A stretch of DNA of 64,000 nt from an uncultured Muribaculaceae bacterium (GCA_964407685.1 CAYOWI010000001.1:34169-98168), one strand, 5' to 3'. Shown: positions 7,121-54,894, numbered from the stretch's first letter. Notes: generated from the sequence alone by a model not told the origin. Made by a program: numbers and translations.

Positions 7121-7765
7121 TTGATTAATTATCAATTTAGTGGTATTAATCCTGAAAAGGGTTTTACAAAAAAGCAAGCTGATTGCTTAAAAAAAGATAT
7201 CAAAGACAATTCAAATATAGTTTTTATCGCTAGTATATTTAGTGATTACAAGAAGAATGATGAGTTATTTAAAAATTATATAGAATATTTTGAAAACAAC
7301 AATATTAAATTTAGAAAATCAAGTATTATTGATGATAGAATTTCTATTACTTTAGCCCATGAATTAATTAATGATGCTGATATAGTATTTTTACTTGGTG
7401 GAAATCCGGAAATGCAAATGAAATCAATTAATAAATATGATTTAAAGAAATATATAAAAAAAGTAAACATAGTAATAGGTGTAAGTGCCGGTTCCATGAA
7501 TCAGTCTAAAAGAGTTATGTATAAAGATGATTTTGAAAATTTTAAGATGAAGGATTATGAGGGATTAGGATTAGTGAAAATAAATATTTTTCCGCATGTA
7601 GATTTAAATAATAGTTCTATTATGAATGAGGTGACTGAAATAAGTAAATACATGGAGCTTATTTTATTACCTAATGATTCGTTTATAAGGGTATATAATA
7701 ACAATATAAAATTCTTTGGGAATTATTATTTAATCAAAAATAAAAATTTAAAAACAAATGTTTGA
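7121..7765 (+). CDS. Peptidase S51 family (dipeptidase E / cyanophycinase-like) protein
   Basis: GGNPEMQ and GVSAGSM (nucleophile Ser) motifs. TTG start with a GAGGAGG ribosome-binding site. Confidence 0.65.
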   Translation: MINYQFSGINPEKGFTKKQADCLKKDIKDNSNIVFIASIFSDYKKNDELFKNYIEYFENNNIKFRKSSIIDDRISITLAHELINDADIVFLLGGNPEMQMKSINKYDLKKYIKKVNIVIGVSAGSMNQSKRVMYKDDFENFKMKDYEGLGLVKINIFPHVDLNNSSIMNEVTEISKYMELILLPNDSFIRVYNNNIKFFGNYYLIKNKNLKTNV

Positions 7766-8047
7766 CAAAAAGAATAAAATATATTAGAATTGGTTTATAT
7801 TTTTAAATTGCTGATTTGGAGAAGTAAATATTAAAGAAACTTATAGAAAGTAACTGGCAGATGGAAAGTTATAGTGGATTAATATTGAATGGACCAATGA
7901 GAGTTTTTCTGAAATTATATTATAAAGAGTAGGTAAAATCGGAATTTCTATCCGTTATCAAATGAACATATATGATGGTATATGATTTTAATCTATTTTT
8001 AGGTGGCACAAGACTCTTGTCCTATTTTGGGTGGGCAGAGTCTTTTT
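7762..8047 (+). promoter_or_regulatory. Sigma-A promoter (TTGACA-17-TAGAAT) plus T-box riboswitch leader with Trp specifier, controlling trpS
   Basis: Specifier-like UGGA in the stem I region. T-box-like AGGTGGCACAAG. Terminator hairpin GACTCT...AGAGTC followed by TTTTT at 8012-8047. Confidence 0.7.
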
Positions 8048-8136
8048 ATATTTTAAGGAGTTGATAAGAATGTTTTTATTAACCAAACGATGGTATTTTG
8101 TATTTTTGTTTTAAAATAAAATAATTAGAAAAGAGA

Positions 8137-9138
8137 ATGAGTAAAATGAAAACAATGATTACAGGAGTTAGACCAACAGGTATTATAACTCTAGCAAATT
8201 ATATTGGGGGAATTAAAAAATTTGTCCAACAACAAAGGGATTATAATTCATTAATTTTTATAGCGGATATTCATGGCCTTACTACTTATATTAATCCGGA
8301 TGAAATACAAAATAATATCCTTGATATTACTGCCCTTTATTTAGCCTGTGGTATAGATTTATCTCACACCATTATTTTTCAACAAAGCGATGTTTTAGAA
8401 CATTGTAATTTAGGTTTTTTGATGGCATTTCAATGTGGTGTTGGTGAATTATCTAGAATGACCCAATATAAGTCAAAAAAGTCAGAACTGTCTAAAGCGA
8501 ATAAAGATATGGGATTATTCATATATCCAACATTAATGGCAGCGGATATTTTATTATATGATGCATCGGTTGTTCCGGTTGGCGTAGATCAAAGACAACA
8601 CATAGAAAAAACAAGAGATTTAGGTGAAAGATTTAATAAAGTTTATGGTAAAACATTTGTACTTCCAGAGTATCAAATTCCTAAAATAGGAGCTAAAATA
8701 AAGAATCTACAGAATCCTCAAATAAAGATGAGTAAATCTGCCCCGAAAGATGATAAGGGTACGATATTCATTTTAGATGATGTTGAAATAACAAAAAAGA
8801 AAATAATGATAGCAGTAACGGATAATGAAGGAAAGATTTATTTTGATGAAAAAAATAAGCCTGGCATATCAAATCTTTTATCTATTATAGCTGTTATAGA
8901 TAATTTGAGTATTGAAGAAGTTTCCTTAAAATATAAGGATTACACTTATAAGGAATTTAAAATAGAAGTTGCTGATAAAGTTGCAAAATTTATTTTGGAT
9001 ATTCAAGATAAATTTTATAGTTTCAGAAATGATGAAAGATATTTAAAAAAAGTATTAAATGATGGAGCAGCTAAAGCAAAAAAACTTGCAAGTAAAAAGA
9101 TGAACCAAGTTAAAAAGTTAGTTGGAATAAAAACATAA
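8137..9138 (+). CDS. trpS: Tryptophan--tRNA ligase
   Basis: Class I aaRS with KMSKS motif (KMSKSAPK) and TrpRS-like N-terminus. T-box with UGG specifier upstream. Confidence 0.9.
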   Translation: MSKMKTMITGVRPTGIITLANYIGGIKKFVQQQRDYNSLIFIADIHGLTTYINPDEIQNNILDITALYLACGIDLSHTIIFQQSDVLEHCNLGFLMAFQCGVGELSRMTQYKSKKSELSKANKDMGLFIYPTLMAADILLYDASVVPVGVDQRQHIEKTRDLGERFNKVYGKTFVLPEYQIPKIGAKIKNLQNPQIKMSKSAPKDDKGTIFILDDVEITKKKIMIAVTDNEGKIYFDEKNKPGISNLLSIIAVIDNLSIEEVSLKYKDYTYKEFKIEVADKVAKFILDIQDKFYSFRNDERYLKKVLNDGAAKAKKLASKKMNQVKKLVGIKT

Positions 9139-11212: not shown

Positions 11213-11224
11213 GAGGTGGTAATA

Positions 11225-13288
11225 ATGAGAAAGAAAAAAAATAGTAAGTGGTTAGTTGGTCTTTTTATAACACTACTTGTTGTAGTGCTAATTATTCTCA
11301 TAAACTTTAGTAAGGGTTCAAAAGAAAATACCAAACTAAATTTAACCGAAAAAAAATGGATTGAGAATAATAAAAAAGATGTAATAAATGTTTCGATTGC
11401 AAATAACATACCGGGTTTTAGTAGTGAAGGAGAAGGGGTATTTTTTGACTATATTAAAAAATTAGAAGAAAAAACTGACTTATCTTTTAACTTGATTTCT
11501 TACGATGCTGATGAAGATACAACTACAAATGATTTATATTTTGAAGTTGTAAAAGGAGATTTAGTAAATAAATTATCTGATGATGATATGGTGTTTTTTA
11601 AAGACTATTATGTATTAGTAAGCAAAGATGAAGATAAAATAACTGATCCTGGTAACATAATAAATAAAAAAATAGGTGTATTAAGTAGTGATTTAGCACT
11701 TGTTAGTTATTTTATACCATCATCTAACGGAATATCATATACTTCGTATCAGAATTCTTCTGAAATAAAAAATGCGCTTACGAGTTCTAGTGTTGATTAT
11801 ATTGCCATTCCAAAAACTAGGTATTCATCATATATAATATCTAATTCATATCACGTTGTATACAACATGACTGAGTTAAAGGAAGCGTATGTATTAAAGA
11901 CTTCTAAAGATACAAATAAGAATTTATCCAGCATTGTTAGAAAAAACTTTATAGAGTATAAAAATGATACGTTACAGAACGTATATAATGAAACTTTAAT
12001 GGGATTATTGTTAGAGGAAAATAATATATCTGAAAAATCAAAAGCGGACTTTTTAAGTAAAAAATACGTTTTTGGATATTTAGAGAACGAACCATATACT
12101 AACACTATTAATAATAAACTAATTGGTCTTGATAGTACGTACATCAATTCGTTTAGTTCGTTAACTGGGGCATCCTTTACCATCAAAAAATATCGTTCTG
12201 TTAAAGATTTAGCTAACGATTTTAACAATGGTAAGGTTGATGTTGCACCTAATTATTATAATTATTCCAATTTAAAGGGAAATTATGCAAAAACTATTTC
12301 TCCATATGATGAAGAGTACGTCGTTTTAGTTTATAATACGAAAACTAATGTTGTTGTTAATTCAGTAAGGTCATTAAAAGATAAAAACGTCGTAACAACT
12401 AATAGTACTTTGGCTAGATTTTTGGAAAAAGAAGGAAAAGCTAAAGTAAAAGCATATGATAGAGTTAGTCAGTTAATTAAAAATATAAATAAAGATAGTT
12501 TAATTATATTAGACAAAAACGTTTATGAAATGTATAAAGATAGTGAGTTATCTAAGTACCGTGTAATTTATAACGATAAAGAAAACCTTGAATATGGTTA
12601 TATAATAAGAGATGTAAACGAAAATAGTACATTTAAAAAATTATTCATAACTTATATGGAAATGTCTAATTATAAACAGTTATATAATGTTGCATGGAAA
12701 GAGTTTAAGGTTGATTCTAAAGAAATAAGTTATACTTATTTATACATAATTGGAGCTTTAATACTAGGATTTATAGTATGGCTTTTTGCAAAGAAGAAAA
12801 TAAAGATTAAAAAGAAAGCAAAAAGAGAAGAAACAATTAGATATATAGATCCACTTACTTCTCTTAAAAATCGTAATTATTTAAATAAGAACTTTAAAAG
12901 ATGGGAAAATAATTCTATTTATCCTCAAGCAATAATAGTTATTAATTTAAATAATTTAAGACACGTAAATGATGTATATGGTCATGAAGAAGGAGATAAA
13001 TTAATTAGGTTAGCGGCTAATGTTTTAATAAAAAATCAGTTGGATCAAAGTGATATTATAAGAACCGATGGTAATGAGTATTTAATTTACATGGTTGGGT
13101 ATGAGAAAAATAAGGTTGTTACTTACATGAGAAAGTTATATAAAGAATTAGGGGAACTTCCTTATGGTTATGGAGCAACGCTTGGTTATAGTATGATAGA
13201 AGATGATATTAAAACGATTGATGATGCTATAAATGAAGCTGTTTTAGAAATAAGAGCAAATAAAGAAATGAATAATAAGGGTAAGTAG
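11225..13288 (+). CDS. Membrane sensor with periplasmic solute-binding-like region and C-terminal degenerate GGDEF domain
   Basis: N-terminal TM, ~480-aa extracytoplasmic region, second TM, then a GGDEF-like domain (RYIDPLTSLKNRNYL...). The signature is RTDGNEY instead of R[YF]GG[DE]EF. Confidence 0.7.
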   Translation: MRKKKNSKWLVGLFITLLVVVLIILINFSKGSKENTKLNLTEKKWIENNKKDVINVSIANNIPGFSSEGEGVFFDYIKKLEEKTDLSFNLISYDADEDTTTNDLYFEVVKGDLVNKLSDDDMVFFKDYYVLVSKDEDKITDPGNIINKKIGVLSSDLALVSYFIPSSNGISYTSYQNSSEIKNALTSSSVDYIAIPKTRYSSYIISNSYHVVYNMTELKEAYVLKTSKDTNKNLSSIVRKNFIEYKNDTLQNVYNETLMGLLLEENNISEKSKADFLSKKYVFGYLENEPYTNTINNKLIGLDSTYINSFSSLTGASFTIKKYRSVKDLANDFNNGKVDVAPNYYNYSNLKGNYAKTISPYDEEYVVLVYNTKTNVVVNSVRSLKDKNVVTTNSTLARFLEKEGKAKVKAYDRVSQLIKNINKDSLIILDKNVYEMYKDSELSKYRVIYNDKENLEYGYIIRDVNENSTFKKLFITYMEMSNYKQLYNVAWKEFKVDSKEISYTYLYIIGALILGFIVWLFAKKKIKIKKKAKREETIRYIDPLTSLKNRNYLNKNFKRWENNSIYPQAIIVINLNNLRHVNDVYGHEEGDKLIRLAANVLIKNQLDQSDIIRTDGNEYLIYMVGYEKNKVVTYMRKLYKELGELPYGYGATLGYSMIEDDIKTIDDAINEAVLEIRANKEMNNKGK

Positions 13289-13295
13289 GATAGTT

Positions 13296-14147
13296 ATGAA
13301 AAAAAGTAAAGAAAAAATAAAGGGTAGGATAACTGAAAACATAAGGTTAATGAGTACTCCGTTAATGTCTATACTGCCAGGACAAATATCCTTTTTCGTA
13401 ATATTATCTATTATTCCACTAGCTAGTATACTAGCTATGTTAATATCAAAGTTATCATTTAACTTTGATGCGGTAACTGATTTTGTTTCTCATTATTTGC
13501 CTAGTGGTGTAACAAACATGATACTACTTATTTTTGAACAACAAAAAGTTACAACGTTTGATTTATTCTTTATAATAATGGCGTTTTACTTGGCATCAAA
13601 GGCAACTCATTCGATAATTATTGCTTCAACCCAGATTTATAACGGAGAGCAAAAAGATTTTATTAGAACAAGAATTAAAGCCATTTTAATGCTTATAATA
13701 TTAGTTTTATTAGTAATAACGTTAGTTGGAGTTTTAACTATTGGTGGTAGGTTAGTAGATTATTTAAGCGTTGTAAACGGAAATATTCATCCAATTATTA
13801 ACTGGATATACTTGGTTTTAAAATGGCCTTTTATGTTTTTTATGGTTTTCTTTACAATAAAGGTAATTTATACTATTGCGCCAAATGTTAATATTCCTAG
13901 TAGTAGTGTTAATAAAGGAGCTTTATTAACGACGGTGGTATGGGTAGTATCTACTTATGGTTTTTCATTTTACGTAACAAATTTAGCAAACTATACTAAG
14001 TTTTATGGTAACCTTTCAAATCTTATTATCCTTATGATTTGGATTTACTGGTTATGTTATATATTTGTTTTTGGAATGACCATCAATGAATACAAACTTA
14101 ATAATAAGGAAAGCTTTTCTTTGAAAAAAGAAATAAATGGTGATTAA
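13296..14147 (+). CDS. YihY/BrkB (virulence factor BrkB / former RNase BN) family membrane protein
   Basis: Six-TM topology and family-typical N-terminus (LPGQISFFVILSIIPL). Confidence 0.7.
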   Translation: MKKSKEKIKGRITENIRLMSTPLMSILPGQISFFVILSIIPLASILAMLISKLSFNFDAVTDFVSHYLPSGVTNMILLIFEQQKVTTFDLFFIIMAFYLASKATHSIIIASTQIYNGEQKDFIRTRIKAILMLIILVLLVITLVGVLTIGGRLVDYLSVVNGNIHPIINWIYLVLKWPFMFFMVFFTIKVIYTIAPNVNIPSSSVNKGALLTTVVWVVSTYGFSFYVTNLANYTKFYGNLSNLIILMIWIYWLCYIFVFGMTINEYKLNNKESFSLKKEINGD

Positions 14148-15018
14148 TATGGGAAAAAAATTTGTTTTAACAGTTATAACTTTTTTGACATTAGTAATTT
14201 TTATGCCGATTAGCGTAAAAGCAGAAAATAGAGTTTATTTTGAAAAAGAGGAAATTAATATAGCGCCAGGCGAAACAAAAAAGATTAATATAATAGTAGA
14301 TTCTGATGAGGACTTTACTAAAGTTAATTTTAGTTTGATTACGACTTCTAATAATGTTAATTTTAAATCAGTTGACTTTGTGGATTCCTTCGTAAGAAAT
14401 AGTACGTCGTCAACTGGAAGTAATTATGAACTACAATCAAATGAACCTCAAAAATCAGGTACGGTAATAGGTAGCGTTACAATCGGTGCAAAAGATACAT
14501 CACAATTAGGTGAAGAAGGTTATATAAGGTTAATTAAAACGGCTATAACCTCTAGCAAATTAATTAATTTATCAAATGCACAGTTAAAGTTTACCGTTAG
14601 TAAAGATAAATCTAGTAATAATTATTTATCTAATTTATCCTCTAATATTACGGAGATTGATTTTAAAAAAGACGTTTTAGACTATAATGTTACCGTTGAT
14701 GAAAACATCGATAAATTCGATTTGATGGCGGTTGCAGAAGATTTATCCGCTAGTGTTAACATTTCAGATCAAACTTTGGATAAGGATGTTAATTTAATAA
14801 AGGTTACGGTTTTATCAGAAACGGGAAAGGAAAGAATATATAAAGTTACGGTAAATAAAAAAGGATCAGAAAAAAAGGATCCTAAAAAAGTTACAAAAAC
14901 TACAGAAGTTAAAAATAATAGTAAGGAAAGACCTGGTAAATCATCATGGATTATATTATTGGTATTTTTAAGTAGTGTTATAATATTAGATATTTTATAC
15001 ATAAAAAAGAAGCGATAA
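14137..15018 (+). CDS. Cell-surface protein: signal peptide, possible cohesin-like N-domain, cadherin-like beta-sandwich domain, C-terminal TM anchor
   Basis: Signal peptide. LSNLSSNITEIDFKKDVLDYNVTV...YKVTVNKK matches the cadherin-like beta-sandwich pattern. C-terminal TM plus KKKR. Paralogous in architecture to 52496-54016. Confidence 0.5.
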   Translation: MVINMGKKFVLTVITFLTLVIFMPISVKAENRVYFEKEEINIAPGETKKINIIVDSDEDFTKVNFSLITTSNNVNFKSVDFVDSFVRNSTSSTGSNYELQSNEPQKSGTVIGSVTIGAKDTSQLGEEGYIRLIKTAITSSKLINLSNAQLKFTVSKDKSSNNYLSNLSSNITEIDFKKDVLDYNVTVDENIDKFDLMAVAEDLSASVNISDQTLDKDVNLIKVTVLSETGKERIYKVTVNKKGSEKKDPKKVTKTTEVKNNSKERPGKSSWIILLVFLSSVIILDILYIKKKR

Positions 15019-15112
15019 TACTTCTTTTTCTTTTATAAATAATTAATAAAGTTGATATCTGTTATAGTAATTGAAACCTTTTTATGCTATAATGTTTTTA
15101 CGGGTGATTTAC

Positions 15113-16531
15113 ATGAAGAAATTATATAAAATTATTAAAATTGTTTTTAGTTTTCTTTTATTAGGCACATATTTATATCTATTATATTTATTAAATGATT
15201 TTGGTTTTTTTGCAAACAAAATGTTATTAACCATATTTTTAATTATAATTTTCTTTATGATATTTATTTTGTTTTGTATCTTTAAAATCAAACAGAAATT
15301 TTTAAAGGTACTACTATTTATAATTGGACTAATGGGAATTATATTTAATTTTATAGGTATATATTACTTGAACAGTACTATAAACTTTTTAGAAAATTTT
15401 GGTGATAATAAAGAAGAATACGATTATTACTATGTATTAGCTTTGAAAAAGAGTGGTTATAAAACGATAGATGATTTAGAAAATAAAAAGATAGGTCAAG
15501 TAGAGGGAATGGATTCTGAAGCCTTAAAAAAGATAAAAATTAAATATGATAAAAAAACGTATGAAAAAGTAGAATCATTACTAGATAATCTTAATAATGG
15601 TAATTTAGATGCCATTATTGTAAGTGATATTGAGGAGTATATTTTAGAAGAAGAAAACGAAGACTTTTCTAAAAAGGTGAAGGTTATTTTCACTATAAAG
15701 ATGAAAAAAGAAAACCAGGTTGAAAAATCTGTAAAAGATACATCAGAGGAAAGTTTTTCCGTATATATTAGTGGTATTGATACATCGGGAGCCATATCTA
15801 AGGTATCAAGAAGTGATGTTAATATAGTAGTTACGGTAAATCCTAAGACTAACCAAGTGTTATTAACTACTATTCCAAGAGATTACTATGTACAATTACA
15901 TGGTACTACTGGAAGAAAAGATAAACTAACGCATGCTGGTATATATGGAATTAATATGTCTATTACTACGATAGAGGATTTACTTGATATGGATATAAAT
16001 TATTATGCAAGGGTTAATTTTGATACGGTTGTTCATTTGGTAAATGAGCTTGGTGGAATTAGTATATATTCTGATAGAAACCTACATTTTTGCGATATTA
16101 AAGAAGGATATAATTATTTAATGGGAGATTGTGCTCTTAGGTTTGCAAGAGAAAGAAAATCGTATGAAACCGGAGATAGACACAGGGGAGAAAATCAAGA
16201 AGAAGTTATAAAGGCAATAATAAATAAGCTGCAAAACTCTAGTTCTTTACTAACAAAATATAATTCAATATTAAAAAATCTTGAGAATGATTTTCAAACT
16301 AATGCTTCGCAAGATGAAATAAAAAAACTTGTTAAATTACAGGTTAGTAGCATGCCAAAATGGACCGTTAAAACGTATAATTTAAATGGTAGCGATTCAC
16401 ATAATTATACTTATAGTGGGGGTAACAGAATGCTATATGTTATGGAACCTGATATGACAACGGTTAATAAAACAAAAGAAATTATAAAATCCGTATTAGA
16501 AGGAAAAACTTTTGAAGAAATTGGAATATAA
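15113..16531 (+). CDS. LCP (LytR-CpsA-Psr) family glycopolymer phosphotransferase with extended multi-TM N-terminus
   Basis: LCP core VTVNPKTNQVLLTTIPRDYYV...ARVNFDTVVHLVNELGGISI. Confidence 0.8.
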   Translation: MKKLYKIIKIVFSFLLLGTYLYLLYLLNDFGFFANKMLLTIFLIIIFFMIFILFCIFKIKQKFLKVLLFIIGLMGIIFNFIGIYYLNSTINFLENFGDNKEEYDYYYVLALKKSGYKTIDDLENKKIGQVEGMDSEALKKIKIKYDKKTYEKVESLLDNLNNGNLDAIIVSDIEEYILEEENEDFSKKVKVIFTIKMKKENQVEKSVKDTSEESFSVYISGIDTSGAISKVSRSDVNIVVTVNPKTNQVLLTTIPRDYYVQLHGTTGRKDKLTHAGIYGINMSITTIEDLLDMDINYYARVNFDTVVHLVNELGGISIYSDRNLHFCDIKEGYNYLMGDCALRFARERKSYETGDRHRGENQEEVIKAIINKLQNSSSLLTKYNSILKNLENDFQTNASQDEIKKLVKLQVSSMPKWTVKTYNLNGSDSHNYTYSGGNRMLYVMEPDMTTVNKTKEIIKSVLEGKTFEEIGI

Positions 16532-16543
16532 GGAGTTGTTTAA

Positions 16544-17218
16544 ATGGAAACTATAGATTTAAAAGAAATGCTAGATTATTTCAAATCTAAAATATCAATT
16601 ATTATTTTGATAACTGCGGTAGTTGGAGTGTTAGGATGTGTATATGGGCTTTTTATTCAAGTTCCTAAATATCAATCATCTAGTACAGTATTATTAATTG
16701 GTGGAGCCTCAAGTGATTCGGCCCTTACTTATAATGATGTTTCGTTAAATAAAAACTTAGTTAGTACTTATTCGGAAATAGTTAAAAGTAAAAGGGTGTT
16801 AAACCAAGTAATAGATAACCTAGGATTGGATTATAGTTATTCAAAGCTTTATTCAATGATAAGCGTATCATCGGTTACAAATACTGAGTTAATTAAAATA
16901 ACGGTAACCGATACTGATAAAACAAACGCAATGGATATAACAAATGAAACCACAAATGTATTTGCTAAGGAAATACCAGAGTTATATAACATATCAAACG
17001 TTAACATACTTGATGAAGCAGAAGAAGCATCTAATCCTTCAAACGTAAGTGTTACAAAGCAAGCTATATTATTTATTATGGTAGGGTTAGTATTAGGATT
17101 AGGCGTAGTATTTTTAATATATTACTTTGATAGAACAATTAAATCAGTAGAACAAGTTGAAACGAAATTAGGACTACCTGTTTTAGGTACCGTACAAGAG
17201 TATAAAGGGGGAAAATAA
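16544..17218 (+). CDS. Polysaccharide chain-length determinant / tyrosine-kinase modulator (CpsC/YwqC-like, Wzz)
   Basis: Two TM helices flanking an extracellular loop, with an N-terminus typical of CpsC. Followed directly by the kinase gene. Confidence 0.8.
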   Translation: METIDLKEMLDYFKSKISIIILITAVVGVLGCVYGLFIQVPKYQSSSTVLLIGGASSDSALTYNDVSLNKNLVSTYSEIVKSKRVLNQVIDNLGLDYSYSKLYSMISVSSVTNTELIKITVTDTDKTNAMDITNETTNVFAKEIPELYNISNVNILDEAEEASNPSNVSVTKQAILFIMVGLVLGLGVVFLIYYFDRTIKSVEQVETKLGLPVLGTVQEYKGGK

Positions 17219-17219
17219 A

Positions 17220-17894
17220 ATGAAAGATGAGTTAATAGTTAAAACAAGACCTAAATCAATAATTAGTGAAGATATTAGAACCATTCGTACTAACTTAGAA
17301 TTTTCACTATCAGATGATGATAAAAAGGTTATTATGATAACTTCATCTAACCCTTCAGAGGGTAAAAGCTTTATAAGTAGTAATTTAGCGGTTGCTTTTG
17401 CTCAAAATGATAAAAAAGTTTTACTTATAGACTGTGATTTAAGACTAGGAAGGACACATAAAATATTTGAACTTTCGAATAAAAAAGGGCTATCTAATTT
17501 AATAGCAAAATATGATGAAGAAGTGGTTTATGAAGATTATATACAAAAAACAGATATTAAAAATTTAATAGTTTTATCAAGAGGGGCAGTACCACCTAAT
17601 CCATCAGAGTTATTATCATCTAAGAAATTCAAAAGAATAATTAAGGATTTTGAAAAAATATTTGATTACATAATATTAGATAGTGTTCCTGTAAACGGAC
17701 TTCCTGATGCTTTGGTATTATCTAAAATGGCAGATAAAACAATTATAGTAAGTAAGTATGGTTCTACTGATATAAATAGCTTAGAGGATGCTAAAAAAGC
17801 CTTAGAAAACGTTAATGCAAGTATAGCAGGGGTAGTAATTAATAAGATTCCTAAAGCTAGAAGTAAATATGGGAATTATTATTATGGAGAATAA
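17220..17894 (+). CDS. BY-kinase (CpsD/YwqD-like protein tyrosine kinase)
   Basis: Walker A (SSNPSEGKS), Walker A' (LLIDCDLR), C-terminal Tyr cluster (YGNYYYGE). Confidence 0.85.
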   Translation: MKDELIVKTRPKSIISEDIRTIRTNLEFSLSDDDKKVIMITSSNPSEGKSFISSNLAVAFAQNDKKVLLIDCDLRLGRTHKIFELSNKKGLSNLIAKYDEEVVYEDYIQKTDIKNLIVLSRGAVPPNPSELLSSKKFKRIIKDFEKIFDYIILDSVPVNGLPDALVLSKMADKTIIVSKYGSTDINSLEDAKKALENVNASIAGVVINKIPKARSKYGNYYYGE

Positions 17895-17896
17895 TT

Positions 17897-18622
17897 ATGA
17901 TAGACATACATTCTCATATAATATATGGTATTGATGATGGCTGTAAAACGATTGATGAGTCTATAAATACAATTATAAACTTAAAAAAAATAGGCTTTGA
18001 TAAACTAATATTAACACCTCATTACATAAATGGGTCTAATTATAATAAAAATAATAAAGAAAAGAAAGAAAGATTAAACGTTTTAAAAGAAGAACTTTTA
18101 AAACGTAATATAGACACCTATTTATATTTAGGAAATGAAATATACGTAAATGATGAAATAGATGAATTAGTATTATCTAAAGAAGTAACCACGTTAAATA
18201 AATCTAGATATTTATTAATAGAATTTCCTTTGTATAATAAAGTAAATAATGTTTCTGATTATATCTATGAACTTCAAATAAAAGGTTATAAGATAATAAT
18301 TGCACATCCAGAAAGATATGAGTATTTTAAAGAAAATTATAAAGAAGTGGATAACTTATATGAAAGTGGTGTTTTATTTCAGTGTAACTACGGAAGCTTA
18401 ATTGGAAAATATGGAAAAGAATCTCAAAAACTAATAGAATACCTACTTAAAAATAATATGGTTACGTTTATGTCAACGGATATACATAGACCAGAATCTT
18501 CTATAATAGATAATTTTTCTATTATAAAAGAAAAAATAGAAAATTATATTGGAATAGATGGTTTTAAAAAGATATCACATGATAATGCTTTAAAAGTTAT
18601 AAACGATGAAACAATAGAGTAG
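17897..18622 (+). CDS. PHP-domain Mn-dependent protein-tyrosine phosphatase (CpsB/YwqE-like)
   Basis: MIDIHSHIIYGIDDG N-terminal His motif of CpsB phosphatases. Confidence 0.85.
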   Translation: MIDIHSHIIYGIDDGCKTIDESINTIINLKKIGFDKLILTPHYINGSNYNKNNKEKKERLNVLKEELLKRNIDTYLYLGNEIYVNDEIDELVLSKEVTTLNKSRYLLIEFPLYNKVNNVSDYIYELQIKGYKIIIAHPERYEYFKENYKEVDNLYESGVLFQCNYGSLIGKYGKESQKLIEYLLKNNMVTFMSTDIHRPESSIIDNFSIIKEKIENYIGIDGFKKISHDNALKVINDETIE

Positions 18623-48864: not shown

Positions 48865-50490
48865 CTAATGTTTGTAAAATCCTTTTCCTATTTGTGTACT
48901 TTGGTATGGATTGTTTATTGAAAATGAAAATTCTTTGTCCATCTCTGGTTTTTTTAATTCCAAGTTTATTTTCATTGCATCAGTTATTTCTTTTAAACTT
49001 TCCTTATAATATTCGAAATAATAAATATTATTTATGTAATTATCATATCCTGATAGGTATAACCTTTGCGTTCCTATGAAATCATCATTATGGATGTTTT
49101 TTGAGTTAAAGATTATGTTTTTAAAAGTATCAAATCCTGTTATCATGGTATCTTTTTCAATGTTAGTATCAATGTTATCTCCGACTATATCTAATATGTC
49201 ATATATTTGAGATAAACTCTTAATACTTTTTAGTTTGTTCATAATTGCATTTACTATTTGTTGTTGATTTTGTCCCCTTATAAAATCATTACTATTATAA
49301 TTAGAGTATTTTTTTCCACAGTATGCTGGCCATGGATGACGATTTCTTGCGAAGGCTAAGGTTTGTTCACCATTTAAAGTCTGCATGCCTTTTTCTAAAT
49401 ATATAGTGTTATTACCAAATCTTCTTTTTGAATCACTTTCACAAAAAGCATATGGTATGTCAACTTCTATTCCACCTAGGGCGTTTACTAGTGATATTAC
49501 ACCTTGAAAGTTTATTTTAGCCCAATAATCAATTTCTATTCCGGTAAAATTAGTTATTGTATCCATTACGCAATCAGCACCATATAATGCAGCGGAATTT
49601 ATCTTATTTTTTGATTTGTTTTTGGTGCAAACAATTGGAACCCTGGTATCCCTTGGAATGCTAAGAATAGTAGCATTCATGGTGTTAGGATTAAAGGTAA
49701 TTAGCATTAACGTGTCACCGTTAAATGAGTTGCTTTTTGATAGGGAACTAGAACTTGAATCAACTCCCATAAGAAGAATAGTAAAAGGCTTATCTAAAGT
49801 TTTACCATTTTCAGTTTTTTTATTTGTGGTCTTCTTGCTTTTTTCTAAGATAACTTTTGTTTCACTGGCGATATTTTCAAAACCTTCTTCGTTTGCGAAT
49901 AAAGATACGTAAGAAGAACTAACAAACATTGCGTCTATTTTATTATTATATAAATCAGTTAACATTTCATTATAATTATCATAAGTTGCTAAATTTTCTT
50001 TATTAATGTTTTTTTCTTTTACCATTTCCATGGCAATGGTATAACCTTCTATGTTTGCTTTATCATTAATTATTCCTATTTTACCTTTTTGCAAGTTAGA
50101 AGCCAAGTTAAATGGTGATTCCTTTAAAACTATTAAACTAGTTGAATAGCCAGTTTCACTCTTGGTTATTTTTGATAGTGAATTACTTATTTTATTAATG
50201 TTAATTGAGATAAATAACTCTAACGTGATAAAAATAGCGATAATAATAAAATACCAAACGTAGCTTTTTGTCTTATTTTTTTTGATACATCTAAGACCAG
50301 TATAAGTAAATAAAACTAAAAGCAATGCCGTTAAAATAATTATTCCGTAAACTACGTAGGTCATAAAGCTCTTTGATGAATTATAATAATATATTTCATT
50401 TGTGAAATAAGCGCTTGAAGCGTAGTAAGCTATCAAAAATAAAAATACAAAAATAGACGCTTTCTTAAATTTCTTTTTTTTATTTTCCAA
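48865..50490 (-). CDS. LCP (LytR-CpsA-Psr) family protein, second copy
   Basis: N-terminal TM helices, then LCP core ILLMGVDSS...GDTLMLITFNPNTMNATILSIPRDT...AKINFQGVISLVNALGGIEVD. Confidence 0.8.
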   Translation of the reverse strand: MENKKKKFKKASIFVFLFLIAYYASSAYFTNEIYYYNSSKSFMTYVVYGIIILTALLLVLFTYTGLRCIKKNKTKSYVWYFIIIAIFITLELFISININKISNSLSKITKSETGYSTSLIVLKESPFNLASNLQKGKIGIINDKANIEGYTIAMEMVKEKNINKENLATYDNYNEMLTDLYNNKIDAMFVSSSYVSLFANEEGFENIASETKVILEKSKKTTNKKTENGKTLDKPFTILLMGVDSSSSSLSKSNSFNGDTLMLITFNPNTMNATILSIPRDTRVPIVCTKNKSKNKINSAALYGADCVMDTITNFTGIEIDYWAKINFQGVISLVNALGGIEVDIPYAFCESDSKRRFGNNTIYLEKGMQTLNGEQTLAFARNRHPWPAYCGKKYSNYNSNDFIRGQNQQQIVNAIMNKLKSIKSLSQIYDILDIVGDNIDTNIEKDTMITGFDTFKNIIFNSKNIHNDDFIGTQRLYLSGYDNYINNIYYFEYYKESLKEITDAMKINLELKKPEMDKEFSFSINNPYQSTQIGKGFYKH

Positions 50491-50710
50491 AATATCACCT
50501 CAAATACCTTGTAATTATACAACAAAATGCTACAAAAAACAACGCTGCTTCAAGTGGATGTTAAATATCTATTTATATGATGCTTTTAAAATAAAAGAAT
50601 ATTCTAAAATCTTTTGACGAAAGTTTACATATTTAAACAAAATTATATATTATATTTCATTATAGGACTAATTTCTATGTTATAATTAATTAAGAATAGG
50701 AGTTGGTCAT

Positions 50711-52486
50711 ATGAAGATATTTAGTAATAAAAAGAATCTATTACTTACTTTTACGATAGTTTTCTCATGCTTTATGATGTTACCAAAACTAAATGCTGCC
50801 TCATATGACGTATATACTGTAAAAAGCTCTATGGGTAAAAAGGATTGCCCGATAAGAACAGGTCCAGGAACTAATAAAGAAATTATTAAAAATGGAAATG
50901 ATAACGTTTATGTCTATGCGAATCAACAATTAGAATATATTAAAACAATGACAGGTCCAAATGGTGGTAAAAATGCCAATTGGTACGCGGTTAAATTTGA
51001 TTATGCTGCAAGGGAATATACTGGATATGTAGTAGAGGCTTGCGTTAATAAGACTACTTATTCGTATAATGATGATGATTCATTTGAGCAAAGTATAAAA
51101 GACTTTCCGGATAGTTATAAGCCGTATTTAAGGAAACTTCATGCTATTCATCCTAATTGGTCTTTTTCGATAGATAACACTAATCTTGATTGGAATGATT
51201 CGGTGACCGCAGAAAGCAGAATTAATCAAAGTGCTATTTCGCATCTTTATCCATCTTTGTTTTATAAAGATGAACAAAACCCTAATGGTATAGTAGTGGA
51301 TGGTACTAGTTGGTATGCCCCTTGTTATGATGCCGTGGGTTATTATTTAGATCCAAGAAATTTTTTAAATGAAAAGAATATATTTATGTTTGAAAGCTTA
51401 TTATATAATCCAGCACAAGATAATTCTGTACAAGGAATATTAAATGGCAGCTTCATGGCTAAAACATTTACGGAAAATGGTTATGATAAGACTTATTCTG
51501 AGGCTTTTATAGAAGCCGCTAAGGAGTCGGGCGTAAGTTCTACACACTTAGCATCACGTGCATTACAAGAAATGGGTGTAACAATGTCATCGGCAGCAAG
51601 CGGAACCGTTCCAGGTTATGAAGGATATTATAACTTTTATAACATTGGTGCATACTCTGGAGTAAACAATTATATAAACGGATTAGAATATGCAAAAAAA
51701 GAAGGATGGAATAGTATTCAAAAGGCAATAACCGGTGGGGCTAAGTTCATAAGCGATAAGTATGTTAACAATGGAAAAGATACTTTATATTTTCAAAAGT
51801 TTAACGTATCTTCAGATAGAAAAACCGCACCTTATACATACGAATATATGACTAACATAATGGCTCCATCATCTGAATCAGCAAGTATATATAATTCTTA
51901 TAAGAACAATGGAAAACTAAATGATGCTTACGCTTTTAAAATCCCAGTTTATAATAATATGACTGCTAACGCATATAAAGTGTCCAGAACGGATACCGTA
52001 GGGGGAAAAGAAGAGGATAATGGCGGTAATACCGAAAATAAACCAACTGAGCCAGAAACTCCAAAAGTAAGTGTTGAAACTAAAATCTCTAACGCTGGTT
52101 ATTTACTTTTGGACGGTTATTTAACAAAAATTAATATTGGTGAAGACATGAGTTTATTAAGACAAAAGTTAACTAATCAAGGGGCTTTAGTTGCAAGTTT
52201 AAATAGTTCATGGAATTCTAAAACGTCTGGTAAGGTTGCAACCGGAGATATAATAGAAGTAGATAAAACAAAAAGATATGAAGTAGTTGTTTATGGTGAT
52301 ATAGATGGTGATGCGGATGTATCAGTTGTAGATTTATTATATTTAAAAAAATATATATTAGGTGATATGAATTTAAATTCTGCTAATAAAAAAGCGGCAG
52401 ACATATCAAAAGATGGAAAAGTAGATGTTGTTGATCTATTACTATTAAAAAAACATATTTTAGGTGAGTATACCATTATTCAATAG
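50711..52486 (+). CDS. Secreted SH3b + GH73-like N-acetylglucosaminidase with C-terminal type I dockerin
   Basis: Signal peptide. SH3b-like segment (...NWYAVKFDY...GYVVEACV). Glucosaminidase-like GYYNFYNIGAY. Dockerin duplicated Ca-binding segments DIDGDADVSVVDLLYLKKYILG and DISKDGKVDVVDLLLLKKHILG. Confidence 0.6.
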   Translation: MKIFSNKKNLLLTFTIVFSCFMMLPKLNAASYDVYTVKSSMGKKDCPIRTGPGTNKEIIKNGNDNVYVYANQQLEYIKTMTGPNGGKNANWYAVKFDYAAREYTGYVVEACVNKTTYSYNDDDSFEQSIKDFPDSYKPYLRKLHAIHPNWSFSIDNTNLDWNDSVTAESRINQSAISHLYPSLFYKDEQNPNGIVVDGTSWYAPCYDAVGYYLDPRNFLNEKNIFMFESLLYNPAQDNSVQGILNGSFMAKTFTENGYDKTYSEAFIEAAKESGVSSTHLASRALQEMGVTMSSAASGTVPGYEGYYNFYNIGAYSGVNNYINGLEYAKKEGWNSIQKAITGGAKFISDKYVNNGKDTLYFQKFNVSSDRKTAPYTYEYMTNIMAPSSESASIYNSYKNNGKLNDAYAFKIPVYNNMTANAYKVSRTDTVGGKEEDNGGNTENKPTEPETPKVSVETKISNAGYLLLDGYLTKINIGEDMSLLRQKLTNQGALVASLNSSWNSKTSGKVATGDIIEVDKTKRYEVVVYGDIDGDADVSVVDLLYLKKYILGDMNLNSANKKAADISKDGKVDVVDLLLLKKHILGEYTIIQ

Positions 52487-52495
52487 GAGGATGAA

Positions 52496-54016
52496 ATGAA
52501 GAATAAAACTAAAAAAATATTAGTAGGAGCATTAGTTCTCTTTCTTGCTTTTATTATAAAACTGCCAAGTACTTTTGCAGCATGTAGCATTAGTGTATCA
52601 TCTACTAGTAACGTAGTGGTTGGAAATACTTTTAAAGTAACTACCACGGTTTCATCTGACGTTGGTTCTTGGTATTATGTGCTTGGTTATGATCCTTCAA
52701 AGGTACAACTTATAAGAGGCAACGTAAAAGTAGTTGGTGTAATAGGAGATAGTAAAACTAATACATATACTTTTAAGGCTTTAAAATCGGGAGTAGCTAC
52801 GTTTAGTACCACTAACGTATCACTTGCAAGTAACAGCACTAACGCTCAGTGCTCACCTAGTACTGGCAAGGCATCGGTTACGATGAAAACACAGGCTGAA
52901 ATAGAAGCTAGTTATAGTAAAAACAATAATTTAAGTTCACTTTCGGTAGAAGGAGCAGAGCTTTCACCGGCTTTTAATAAAGATGTTACCGAGTATTCTG
53001 CTAGCTTACCAGTTGATACTACAAAAGCTAAAGTGCTTGCAACAGCCGAAGATAAAACAGCTTCGATTTCGGGTGCTGGTGAAATAGATGTTGTAGATGG
53101 TATAAATAAGTTAGAAGTTACCGTTACCGCTCAACATGGAGAAAAAAAGACCTATGTAATAAATTTAACGGTTGAAGAACTTGACCCGATATCCGTAACA
53201 GTTAATAATAAGAAGTACACCATAGTAAGAAAGCCTGGGCAGATAGAAAATATTCCGGTTGGGTTTGTTGAAAGTAAGATAAATATACAAAATCAAGAGA
53301 TAACGGTATATAAAAGCGAAGTTACAAAATTAACGTTAGTAGCACTAAAGGATGAAGAAGGAAACATTGGTTTATTTATTTATAATCCATCAAATAAAAC
53401 GTTTAAAGAGTTTAAAGAAGTTAAAGCAAGTTCTGCAAACTTAATAGTGTTAAATGAAAAAAATGTTGATGTTCCAGATGACTTTGAAAGAACTACTTTT
53501 GATTATAATGAAATAAAAATAGAAGGATATAAGTTTAAAAAGGATAATGAAAATAGATACTTCTTAGTTTATGCTCAAAATCTTGAGAACGGAACAACTG
53601 GTTTTTACTTATATGATAGTAGGGAAGGTACTTTTCAAAAGTATTATAATAACATTGTTAATTTTAAAAATAATGCCATAAAAACAAGAGAATATATAAT
53701 AATTGGTTTTATAGTACTATTCGTATTTATGATGTTAATTAAGTTATTAAAATTATTTTCCTCAAAAGAGGCTAAAATAAGAAAATATGAAAATAAAATT
53801 AAAAAATTAAAAAATGAAACTTCAAAAGAAGATTATTATGACATTGATGAAGTATTAGTAAAGGAAGAACCAGTAATAAAAAAAGTCGAAGACGACGAAT
53901 ATGTTGTTCCTAAAAAAACAAGAAAACAGAAAATAAAGGAAATAGAAGAAGCTAAGAAAAAGCTTGATAAGACAAAACCGGCTTTTAGAAGAGTATCTTT
54001 AGAAGATGATGAGTAG
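52496..54016 (+). CDS. Membrane-anchored surface protein: signal peptide, cohesin-like N-domain, cadherin-like beta-sandwich, TM, K/E-rich cytoplasmic tail
   Basis: Cohesin-like pattern (VVVGNTFKVTTTVSS...YVLGYDPSKVQLIRG...YTFKALKSGVATFS). Cadherin-like beta-sandwich (LSSLSVEGAELSPAFNKDVTEYSASLPV...). TM IIIGFIVLFVFMMLIKLL. Confidence 0.45.
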   Translation: MKNKTKKILVGALVLFLAFIIKLPSTFAACSISVSSTSNVVVGNTFKVTTTVSSDVGSWYYVLGYDPSKVQLIRGNVKVVGVIGDSKTNTYTFKALKSGVATFSTTNVSLASNSTNAQCSPSTGKASVTMKTQAEIEASYSKNNNLSSLSVEGAELSPAFNKDVTEYSASLPVDTTKAKVLATAEDKTASISGAGEIDVVDGINKLEVTVTAQHGEKKTYVINLTVEELDPISVTVNNKKYTIVRKPGQIENIPVGFVESKINIQNQEITVYKSEVTKLTLVALKDEEGNIGLFIYNPSNKTFKEFKEVKASSANLIVLNEKNVDVPDDFERTTFDYNEIKIEGYKFKKDNENRYFLVYAQNLENGTTGFYLYDSREGTFQKYYNNIVNFKNNAIKTREYIIIGFIVLFVFMMLIKLLKLFSSKEAKIRKYENKIKKLKNETSKEDYYDIDEVLVKEEPVIKKVEDDEYVVPKKTRKQKIKEIEEAKKKLDKTKPAFRRVSLEDDE

Positions 54017-54042
54017 GAAACCAATTATTGGTTTCTTTTTTT
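54017..54042 (+). terminator. Intrinsic terminator GAAACCAATTATTGGTTTC + T7
   Basis: Perfect 8-bp stem and T-run directly after the stop codon. Confidence 0.65.
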
Positions 54043-54130
54043 CTACAATTTTTTTGAAAATAGTCTATACAATAAATGACCAAAAATAAAGGACAAATAT
54101 AAGAACTATTTTAATGAAATAAAAAATTTT

Positions 54131-54392
54131 ATGTAGATTTAGTTTTATTTAATTATAATTTAAACTCTTTTGTAATATTAGAATTAAAACTTGATAAAGC
54201 AAAATATAAAGATGTTCATCAAGTACTTTTATATCGTGATATAATTGATAAAACGATATAAAAAGATTTTCATAACAAAACTATTGCAATATTAGTATCA
54301 AAAGAAAACGATAAATTTATATTAGAATACGTAAGTGATATGGAAGTATTTTTATCTACTTATGAATTTTATAATACTATAAATAATATATA
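54131..54392 (+). pseudogene. C-terminal fragment of a DUF1016/YhcG-like gene (copy 2 of 4) with internal stops
   Basis: ...NKTIAILVSKENDKFILEYVSDMEVFLSTYEF aligns with the C-terminus of the 18709-19605 copy (NKTIGVIISKKDNMFIIEYASDKRIFNSMYVL). Confidence 0.45.
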
Positions 54393-54423
54393 ATTTATGC
54401 TATAATTTAATTAGGAGAATTTT

Positions 54424-54894
54424 ATGAAAAAAGTAATGTTTATATCAAGCATGGGTGGGCATTTGACCGAGCTTATGCAACTTAAGGGGATTTTTAAAGA
54501 TTATGATTATAAAATAGTGACGGAAAAACACAAATCTACGATTGGACTTAAGGCAAGGTATAAAAGTAAGATAGATTATCTTTTAACCGGAAATAAAGAT
54601 CATATGTTAAGATATTTATTTGTTATTCCGTATAACATTATTAAAAGTTTAATAATATTTTTAAAATTTAAACCAGATGTTATTGTTACAACGGGAGCTC
54701 ATACGTGCGTTGCTATGTGTTATATAGCAAAAATATTTAGAAAAAAAATAATATATATAGAATCATTTGCAAATATAGAAACAAAAACACTTACTGGAAG
54801 ATTGGTTTATCCGATAGCAGATGTATTTGTTGTACAGTGGCATTCGATGCTTAAGTTATATCCAAAAGCTAAGTATGAAGGGTGGATATTTTAA
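54424..54894 (+). CDS. Alg14-like glycosyltransferase membrane-anchoring subunit (Cps14F/PssD-like)
   Basis: About 150 aa, MFISSMGGHLTELMQL, with the typical pairing to a downstream Alg13-like gene. Confidence 0.7.
   Translation: MKKVMFISSMGGHLTELMQLKGIFKDYDYKIVTEKHKSTIGLKARYKSKIDYLLTGNKDHMLRYLFVIPYNIIKSLIIFLKFKPDVIVTTGAHTCVAMCYIAKIFRKKIIYIESFANIETKTLTGRLVYPIADVFVVQWHSMLKLYPKAKYEGWIF

Follow-up and report, generated by a model that had tools for sequence, protein, structure and literature searches.

A dockerin-bearing GH73 glucosaminidase and a membrane protein with a cohesin-related domain: a candidate one-to-one pair in gut Bacilli

The 64-kb stretch of DNA analyzed here (GCA_964407685.1, CAYOWI010000001.1:34169-98168; hereafter the window) is very AT-rich (GC content 26%) and includes two adjacent open reading frames (ORFs) in the same orientation, at the coordinates given in an earlier model-based reading of this sequence (hereafter the original prediction). 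The first gene encodes a predicted secreted peptidoglycan N-acetylglucosaminidase of the GH73 type that ends in a dockerin, and the second one encodes a single-pass membrane protein whose membrane-distal N-terminal domain (hereafter the N-domain) appears to belong to a compact, divergent branch of the cohesin family. The gene pair is kept across the related genomes examined, and the divergence of the dockerin follows that of the N-domain. The interpretation favored here, with a probability of roughly 0.6, is that the dockerin docks on the tip of the extracellular stalk of the membrane protein, holding the hydrolase at the membrane of the cell that produces it. The original prediction had proposed a non-cellulosomal cohesin-dockerin pair that tethers a wall hydrolase to a membrane scaffold; its observations are confirmed, and its interpretation is partly supported.

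Domain architecture of the two proteins

The C-terminus of the hydrolase is unambiguously recognizable as a dockerin, in line with the original prediction. The Dockerin_1 model of Pfam (PF00404) matches residues 528-584 over its entire length (positions 1-57 of 57 of the hidden Markov model, HMM), with E=1.5e-13 and 51.1 bits, compared with the cutoff of 22.9 bits. The domain consists of two near-identical 24-residue repeats, DIDGDADVSVVDLLYLKKYILG at residue 530 (DIDGDADVSVVD-LLYLKKYILG) and DISKDGKVDVVDLLLLKKHILG at residue 564 (DISKDGKVDVVD-LLLLKKHILG). Here are found the two tandem segments of ~22 residues that define dockerins, with Asp, Asn or Ser at loop positions 1, 3, 5 and 12 followed by a helix, and both Ca-binding loops are retained in the orthologue consensus. 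All 52 orthologous hydrolases match PF00404, and the dockerins in PDB are matched with E-values reaching 1e-6 for the window sequence alone and 6e-13 for the family profile.

The core of the hydrolase (~300 residues) is predicted to be a GH73-type N-acetylglucosaminidase. When the single sequence is compared with PDB, the homologues are SagB (6fxp, E=7e-19; 6fxp and 6u0o at ~1e-18), AtlE (4pi7, 1e-16) and Atl (6fxo, 4e-15), and the orthologue profile matches the glucosaminidase domain of Atl (6fxo) with E=2.5e-32 along with the Clostridium perfringens enzyme 5wqw. The NCBIfam model for SagB matches the hydrolase at E=3e-23, under the equivalog cutoff. Glu287, the predicted catalytic residue in the motif LQEMG, aligns with the Glu in the motif LLETG of SagB (6fxp), the general acid of GH73, and both Q286 and E287 are invariant in the 52 orthologues. 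The GH73-like core of the original prediction is thereby borne out, although the Pfam model that was put forward for checking it, PF01832, gives no match to the hydrolase at E≤1.

The remaining parts of the hydrolase are less clear-cut. The N-terminal ~95 residues of the mature protein are, at best, weakly SH3b-like: 7 of the 15 close orthologues match SH3_3 (PF08239) at E≤1 (best E-value, 8e-4), which lends weak support to the SH3b-like domain originally described, whereas the window copy itself scores E=0.1 and 13.2 bits, below the cutoff of 27, and the profile of this region has no matches in PDB. Strong SH3_3 matches, counted over the whole protein, are found in 8 of the 52 aligned hydrolases (best E-value, 5e-21). 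Between the core and the dockerin lies a module of ~70 residues that is kept in the close clade and has no matches in Pfam or PDB; this module might play a role similar to that of an X-module beside the dockerin. In the hydrolases of the distant clade, a cadherin-like domain follows the GH73 core, and in three such loci, the pre-dockerin module is detected between the cadherin-like domain and the dockerin.

The partner protein consists, in this order, of a signal peptide, the N-domain, a short helix, a cadherin-like domain, a third beta-domain, a transmembrane (TM) helix and a cytoplasmic tail; the signal peptides of both proteins, also noted in the original prediction, are predicted by sequence reading. 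In the AlphaFold2 model, built with 43 homologues, the protein has a beads-on-a-string shape, with predicted local distance difference test (pLDDT) values of ~85-93 in the three extracellular domains; a Foldseek search with the full-length model yields uninformative matches to proteins with multiple immunoglobulin (Ig) domains. The cadherin-like domain (PF12733, E=1.3e-7, 32.4 bits compared with the cutoff of 24.2), the TM helix and the Lys/Glu-rich tail all correspond to the original description. The third domain (~150 amino acids, all-beta) is kept in all 53 related loci and has no matches in Pfam or PDB; two alike segments, ...LV...G..G.Y.Y....TF..Y, can be discerned within it. The tail is 85 residues long and 55% charged (21 K, 14 E, 8 D and 4 R), and its C-terminus in the close clade carries a nearly invariant RRVSLEDD motif, which hints at a lineage-specific cytoplasmic interaction or coupling. 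Because homology to the tail is undetected in the distant-clade partners, many of which end shortly after the TM segment, the tail does not appear to be essential to the core mechanism.

Close-clade N-domains contain two invariant cysteines, C30, directly after the predicted cleavage site of the signal peptide, and C119, which look like a clade-specific disulfide pair. More distant family members either lack C30 and C119 or contain other Cys pairs. A lipoprotein reading of FAAC (partner residues 27-30), which is a poor lipobox, is unlikely given that Cys30 co-occurs with the invariant Cys119 and is found in the close clade only.

Relationship of the N-domain to cohesins

A relation of the N-domain to cohesins emerged only with a broad profile of the N-domain family. 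The exhaustive HMMER search yielded 174 representative clusters at E≤0.001, of which 82 were used to build the alignment; among the 150 of the 174 clusters that were listed, the domain is almost always located at the same N-terminal position, in proteins of similar size. The window N-domain matches the family HMM with E=2e-40. The Cohesin model of Pfam (PF00963) matches 75 of the 82 aligned members at E≤0.1 and 52 of them at E≤4e-5, which is roughly the Pfam gathering level; for comparison, 17 of the same 82 members match BatD and 5 match chagasin at this threshold. Single members of the family exceed the PF00963 cutoff of 24.1 bits (28.5, 31.6 and 30.8 bits), with HMM coverage up to positions 1-113 of 139. 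In the search of the family profile against all PDB sequences, cohesins account for 21 of the top 23 matches (the best one is ScaB, 3l8q, with E=3e-6); several further cohesins are found at 5e-4 to 1e-2, and the non-cellulosomal NagJ cohesin at E~0.03. The reading adopted here is that the N-domain represents a compact, divergent branch of the cohesin family; this relation is established by sequence comparison for the family, and a cohesin fold is putative.

Several observations weigh against this assignment and, along with it, against the docking of the dockerin on the N-domain. PF00963 gives no match at E≤1 to either the full-length window partner or its isolated N-domain, and in PDB, both the window partner sequence and the close-clade full-length profile show only insignificant similarities to Ig-like domains. 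For the AlphaFold2 model of the N-domain, which has nine strands and a pLDDT of 92.6, the matches in Foldseek are dominated by antibodies and generic Ig-like folds, with no cohesin among the 50 matches listed. For some members of the family, the better score is that of BatD or of a chagasin-type Ig domain, and these members pass the respective thresholds instead; moreover, the N-domain is only ~100 amino acids long compared with ~140 for the canonical cohesins. Failure of the N-domain to score as a cohesin had been named beforehand as an outcome that would count against the original prediction, and this is what the window copy does; the cohesin-like character that was attributed to the 52496 protein stands for the family as a whole and not for this sequence taken singly.

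Pairing of the dockerin with the N-domain

The related loci were collected by a scan of one genome per GTDB species with an alignment of the full-length partner. The scan yielded 53 loci, from uncultured gut Bacilli, Clostridium sp. CAG:594, Candidatus Aphodocola, Acholeplasma sp. CAG:878 and metagenome-assembled genomes of Erysipelotrichaceae. In each of the 52 loci with upstream DNA, the ORF for the GH73-dockerin protein ends 8-25 nucleotides 5' of the N-domain ORF, with sequence identity down to 34-40%. The same gene pair is present in a higher-GC Firmicute contig (L057). Three further metagenome contigs all encode a dockerin-ending protein directly upstream of the N-domain gene; GH73 was detected in two of these, the third one being truncated before the catalytic region, and in one of the three, the adjacency is kept even though the N-domain scores best as chagasin-like. 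The window itself encodes exactly one dockerin and one such N-domain. This count, which covers 64 kb of the genome, is a further caveat against exclusive pairing, given that other cohesins or dockerins may be encoded elsewhere.

In the window, the two genes look co-transcribed and translationally coupled. They are separated by 9 nucleotides, and the Shine-Dalgarno sequence of gene 2 overlaps the stop codon of gene 1, which suggests translational coupling; a promoter-like site in front of gene 1 and a terminator-like hairpin behind gene 2 complete the features from which a bicistronic, translationally coupled operon is deduced. The promoter and terminator calls are consensus matches and do not prove function, and promoter-like sites in this AT-rich region are not enriched compared with shuffled sequences.

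Besides the adjacency and the single copies in the window, the co-divergence of the domains offers a third line of indirect evidence for the pairing. In partial Mantel tests on 51 species, with the distances for GH73, the cadherin-like domain and the third domain regressed out, the dockerin distances correlate with those of the N-domain with r=0.56, a value that was reached in none of the 5000 permutations; within the close clade, the correlation is 0.78. The corresponding values for the dockerin and the other two extracellular domains of the partner are close to zero (-0.05 for the cadherin-like domain and 0.08 for the third domain). Two results of the same kind speak on the other side: the N-domain also follows the divergence of GH73 (r=0.62) and, among the distant-clade sequences, there is a correlation of 0.30 between the dockerin and the cadherin-like domain. 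Because of these two correlations, the Mantel test is supportive rather than decisive. The sequence analysis shows the domain identities, the arrangement as an operon, the adjacency in all loci tested and the specific co-divergence; physical binding between the dockerin and the N-domain, and its dependence on Ca, are inferred.

The proposed mechanism involves both proteins at the cell surface. The product of gene 1 would be secreted, cut the glycan strands of peptidoglycan, and carry the Ca-binding dockerin at its end, and the product of gene 2 would be a type I membrane protein with a three-domain extracellular stalk tipped with the compact, divergent cohesin-family domain. If the dockerin binds the tip of the stalk, the hydrolase would be leashed to the membrane of the producer, with the stalk determining the distance, and would not diffuse through the wall or escape from it. 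Cleavage would then be limited to newly made, inner wall in the vicinity of the synthesis and LytR-CpsA-Psr (LCP) ligation machinery encoded nearby. Such an arrangement would imply a role in the growth or separation of the bacterium's own wall. The docking proposal draws on the location of the pair in a wall-polymer locus and on the precedent of SagB, which in Staphylococcus aureus works at the membrane in a complex with SpdC, an 8-TM CAAX-protease-like protein; in that complex, the partner positions the active site and controls the product length (Schaefer et al., bioRxiv 10.1101/2020.05.21.109470).

A more elaborate version of the docking model is that this one-to-one cohesin-dockerin leash serves as a ruler that holds a SagB-like glucosaminidase at a fixed height, where the enzyme would trim or release nascent glycan strands in step with LCP-mediated attachment, that the tail couples the complex to a cytoplasmic factor in this clade, and that the device is widespread among Firmicutes. 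Taken as a whole, this version is tentative and somewhat doubtful.

The principal alternative to docking is that both proteins serve wall metabolism without any contact between the dockerin and the N-domain. The N-domain would then be a generic Ig-like (BatD/chagasin-type) spacer or ligand-binding domain, and the dockerin would have a different target, such as a wall polysaccharide, one of the other partner domains or a cohesin encoded elsewhere in the genome, or else would act only as a Ca-stabilized module. This possibility gains from the failure of the window N-domain to match Pfam Cohesin, from the generic Ig-like structural matches, from the members that pass the BatD or chagasin thresholds, and from the fact that many non-cellulolytic microbes have dockerins but few or no recognizable cohesins (PMC4081043). 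Nevertheless, it is unlikely: the cohesin signal in the family is far above those of BatD and chagasin (52 versus 17 and 5), nearly all PDB matches of the family profile are cohesins, the dockerin diverges along with the N-domain but not with the two further extracellular domains of the partner, and the adjacency persists even where the N-domain scores as chagasin-like.

Docking could also serve another purpose, namely, that of an offensive surface weapon, a minimal 'lyticome', in which the displayed hydrolase lyses neighboring cells or harvests their peptidoglycan without remodeling the producer's own wall. These are gut organisms, and dockerin-bearing lysozymes and D-Ala-D-Ala carboxypeptidases from rumen metagenomes have been interpreted in terms of attack and defense (PMC6487960), with the 'lyticome' concept put forward for dockerin-bearing cell-wall hydrolases (PMC6403190). 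The peptidoglycan-acting modules of these rumen and ruminococcal systems are likewise fused to dockerins, but the organisms that carry them have many cohesins and dockerins, and the modules are read as weapons of competition, whereas the pair described here is a one-to-one conserved operon in a wall-biosynthesis locus. Judging from the structural model, a stalk of about three domains on the cytoplasmic membrane would keep the enzyme inside or underneath the wall of the producer itself and not beyond it. The pair is embedded in the own wall-polymer biosynthesis locus, beside LCP ligases, in nearly all species, its strict single-copy conservation in many species is typical of housekeeping genes, and the closest characterized relatives of the enzyme (SagB, AtlE and Atl) act on their own wall. 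Altogether, a weapon appears distinctly improbable.

Finally, an origin of the two genes from a prophage or phage lysis cassette, in which an endolysin-like GH73 enzyme would be combined with an accessory membrane protein, has a negligible probability and is rejected: tblastn homologues in GenBank 'Bacteriophage sp.' records from fecal viromes and weak GH73 matches in Staphylococcus phages might suggest such an origin, but the former are unverified, unannotated short contigs, of which the one examined is a bacterial chromosome fragment, the latter are limited to the GH73 core at 31% identity, the hydrolase has a predicted Sec signal peptide, and synteny of the locus extends across 52 species, with genes of wall biosynthesis as neighbors and no phage genes among the neighbors examined. 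Two records labeled 'UNVERIFIED: Bacteriophage sp.' from fecal viromes, MT836697.1 (L057) and MT839502.1, carry the hydrolase/partner gene pair, and the label is misleading. The L057 contig is considered a bacterial chromosome fragment because its ORFs encode ClpC-like and RadA-like proteins (identified by reading the N-terminal sequences) and a glycosyltransferase-like protein.

Related systems and genomic context

Non-cellulosomal cohesin-dockerin pairs are established. The window, with its one cohesin-like domain and one dockerin, encodes no cellulosome: there is no multi-cohesin scaffoldin, the cargo is a predicted peptidoglycan hydrolase, and no plant-cell-wall-degrading enzymes were found among the neighboring genes examined. 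Compared with the cellulosomal type I pairs (C. thermocellum Xyn10B dockerin with CipA cohesin, 1ohz; C. cellulolyticum, 2vn5), the dockerin has the same duplicated Ca-loop and helix, and the N-domain family matches their cohesins. The differences are substantial: here, a single enzyme would be combined with a single-cohesin partner instead of a scaffoldin, the cargo is directed at peptidoglycan instead of plant polysaccharides, anchoring relies on a TM helix with a cytoplasmic tail and not on SLH (surface-layer homology) domains or a sortase signal, and the cohesin-like domain is shorter (~100 versus ~140 amino acids). The glycoside-hydrolase toxins of C. perfringens (NagJ cohesin, 2jh2, 2ozn and 2o4e) are another case of cohesin-dockerin pairing outside plant-biomass degradation in a gut Firmicute. 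The C. perfringens complexes reportedly join secreted host-glycan-degrading enzymes to each other, whereas the proposed partner here is a membrane anchor, and the substrate would be the bacterium's own wall.

SagB, the best characterized homologue of the window enzyme, has its own N-terminal membrane anchor. The likeness to SagB-SpdC, where a GH73 glucosaminidase is held at the membrane by a partner, is best viewed as a functional analogy and not as homology of the partners. The window hydrolase appears to be secreted with a cleavable-type signal peptide, the partner is predicted to be single-pass, with a long extracellular stalk and without a CAAX-protease domain, and the proposed contact is that of a dockerin with a cohesin.

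The most similar case appears to be that of Ruminococcus bicirculans, in which a single cohesin and a single dockerin are described as being associated with a GH73 enzyme (Wegmann et al. 2014, as cited in Ze et al. 2015, PMC4611034). In both cases, a non-cellulolytic gut Firmicute is involved, and one dockerin and one cohesin are tied to a GH73 peptidoglycan hydrolase; the organisms considered here differ in being uncultured, low-GC (26%) Bacilli, and the cohesin has diverged so far that the window copy escapes Pfam. As far as a comparison with that brief description goes, the R. bicirculans pair is very probably the same kind of module. In the open-access literature, no functional study of such a GH73 cohesin-dockerin pair was found, nor any account of its conservation, in these Bacilli, within an operon that also encodes a single-cohesin, membrane-spanning stalk.

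How peptidoglycan hydrolases are controlled in space is a central question of wall growth, and the solutions known are membrane anchors (SagB-SpdC), FtsEX-type activators and wall-binding repeats. Provided that the pairing is real, the cohesin-dockerin leash would be a further modular solution, in the form of a compact operon that is conserved in all 52 genomes that could be tested, each standing for one species of little-known and for the most part uncultured gut Bacilli, and in at least some Clostridia. Such a leash would, in addition, provide a physiological role for the 'orphan' single cohesin-dockerin pairs of non-cellulolytic gut bacteria and extend the recognizable cohesin family to a compact form of ~100 amino acids that is missed by the standard domain models. 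Should the ruler version hold as well, cohesin-dockerin interactions would function as a housekeeping module of wall growth, and not only in nutrient acquisition.

The pair is situated in a long wall-glycopolymer locus (Table 1). Upstream are genes for an LtaS-type enzyme, a PMT_2 glycosyltransferase, an O-antigen-ligase-like protein, YfhO, GT2, an acetyltransferase and LCP, the last one being divergent from the pair; downstream are genes for Alg14-like and Alg13-like proteins, GT4, GT2 and a TagO/WecA-like initiating transferase. The proximity of the pair to a wall-polymer ligase, another element of the original prediction, extends to most of the related loci, where the LCP gene adjoins the pair on either side. 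In four distant-clade loci (L048, L051, L053 and L055), the LCP gene is located directly 3' of the partner gene, on the same strand, and not divergently upstream; therefore, the three-gene association is kept while the order changes. In Clostridium sp. CAG:594-like contigs (L001-L003, ~7650-8630), a DUF1016/YhcG-type nuclease-like gene, absent from the window, separates the partner gene from the Alg14-like gene.

Table 1. Locations of the gene pair, its domains and signals, and associated genes in the window
Feature	Position	Strand	Basis or remarks
LCP wall-polymer ligase gene	48865..50490	-	PF03816 E=6e-41; divergent from the pair
Promoter-like site	50624..50653	+	Consensus scan, 10/12 hexamer matches; 5' of gene 1, between it and the divergent LCP gene
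Gene 1, predicted secreted GH73-type peptidoglycan N-acetylglucosaminidase with C-terminal dockerin, 591 aa (amino acids)	50711..52486	+	ORF, Pfam dockerin, PDB and NCBIfam homology
Signal peptide, residues 1-29, MKIFSNKKNLLLTFTIVFSCFMMLPKLNA/AS	50711..50797	+	Predicted by sequence reading
SH3b-like N-terminal domain, residues ~30-125, weakly supported	50798..51085	+	SH3_3 E=0.1
GH73 glucosaminidase catalytic core (predicted), residues ~126-420	51086..51970	+	Alignment to SagB 6fxp
Small module preceding the dockerin, residues ~455-520	52073..52270	+	Kept in the close clade (phmmer matches)
Dockerin, two Ca-binding loop and helix repeats, residues 530-553 and 564-587	52292..52471	+	PF00404
Shine-Dalgarno AGGAGG of gene 2	52485..52490	+	Sequence reading; overlaps TAG stop of gene 1 (52484-52486)
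Gene 2, predicted single-pass membrane protein with cohesin-like N-domain, 506 aa	52496..54016	+	ORF; AlphaFold2 model, mean pLDDT 79.5
Membrane-distal N-domain, residues ~29-131, compact beta-sandwich, putative divergent member of cohesin-related family	52580..52888	+	Family HMM E=2e-40
Cadherin-like beta-sandwich, residues 146-225	52931..53170	+	PF12733
Third beta-rich extracellular domain, residues ~233-383	53192..53644	+	AlphaFold2 strands, pLDDT 85-93
TM helix, residues 400-421, YIIIGFIVLFVFMMLIKLLKLF	53693..53758	+	Sequence; inside long model helix 385-442
Lys/Glu-rich cytoplasmic tail, residues 422-506	53759..54013	+	Composition
Terminator-like hairpin (54015-54037) and T-run	54015..54047	+	Directly 3' of gene 2; sole terminator-like site in 50300-54600
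Second cadherin-like single-pass membrane protein	14137..15018	+	PF12733 27.8 bits (cutoff 24.2); directly upstream of second LCP gene, 15071-16531

The second cadherin-like membrane protein of the window, encoded at 14137-15018, is indeed built similarly to the partner and located beside the other LCP gene, as originally noted: it has an N-terminal hydrophobic leader, a beta-rich N-domain of ~130 amino acids, a cadherin-like domain and a C-terminal hydrophobic (TM) segment, the hydrophobic parts being read from the sequence. The idea that this protein is a second cohesin scaffold is unsupported and, as the evidence stands, rejected. None of the 31 members of its N-domain family match Pfam Cohesin, the search of the respective profile against PDB finds no cohesin, and hhalign gives a probability of 3% for its similarity to the cohesin-like family. 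Since the protein shows no cohesin signal and there is no second dockerin within the 64-kb window, it is not counted as part of the system. Its N-domain has relatives detectable solely within its own small family, and three ORFs (16544-18622) follow the second LCP gene. Just upstream of the first envelope gene cluster, at 11216-13288, is the gene for a membrane protein of 690 amino acids that combines a long extracellular region with a GGDEF diguanylate-cyclase domain (E=4e-16) at the C-terminus.

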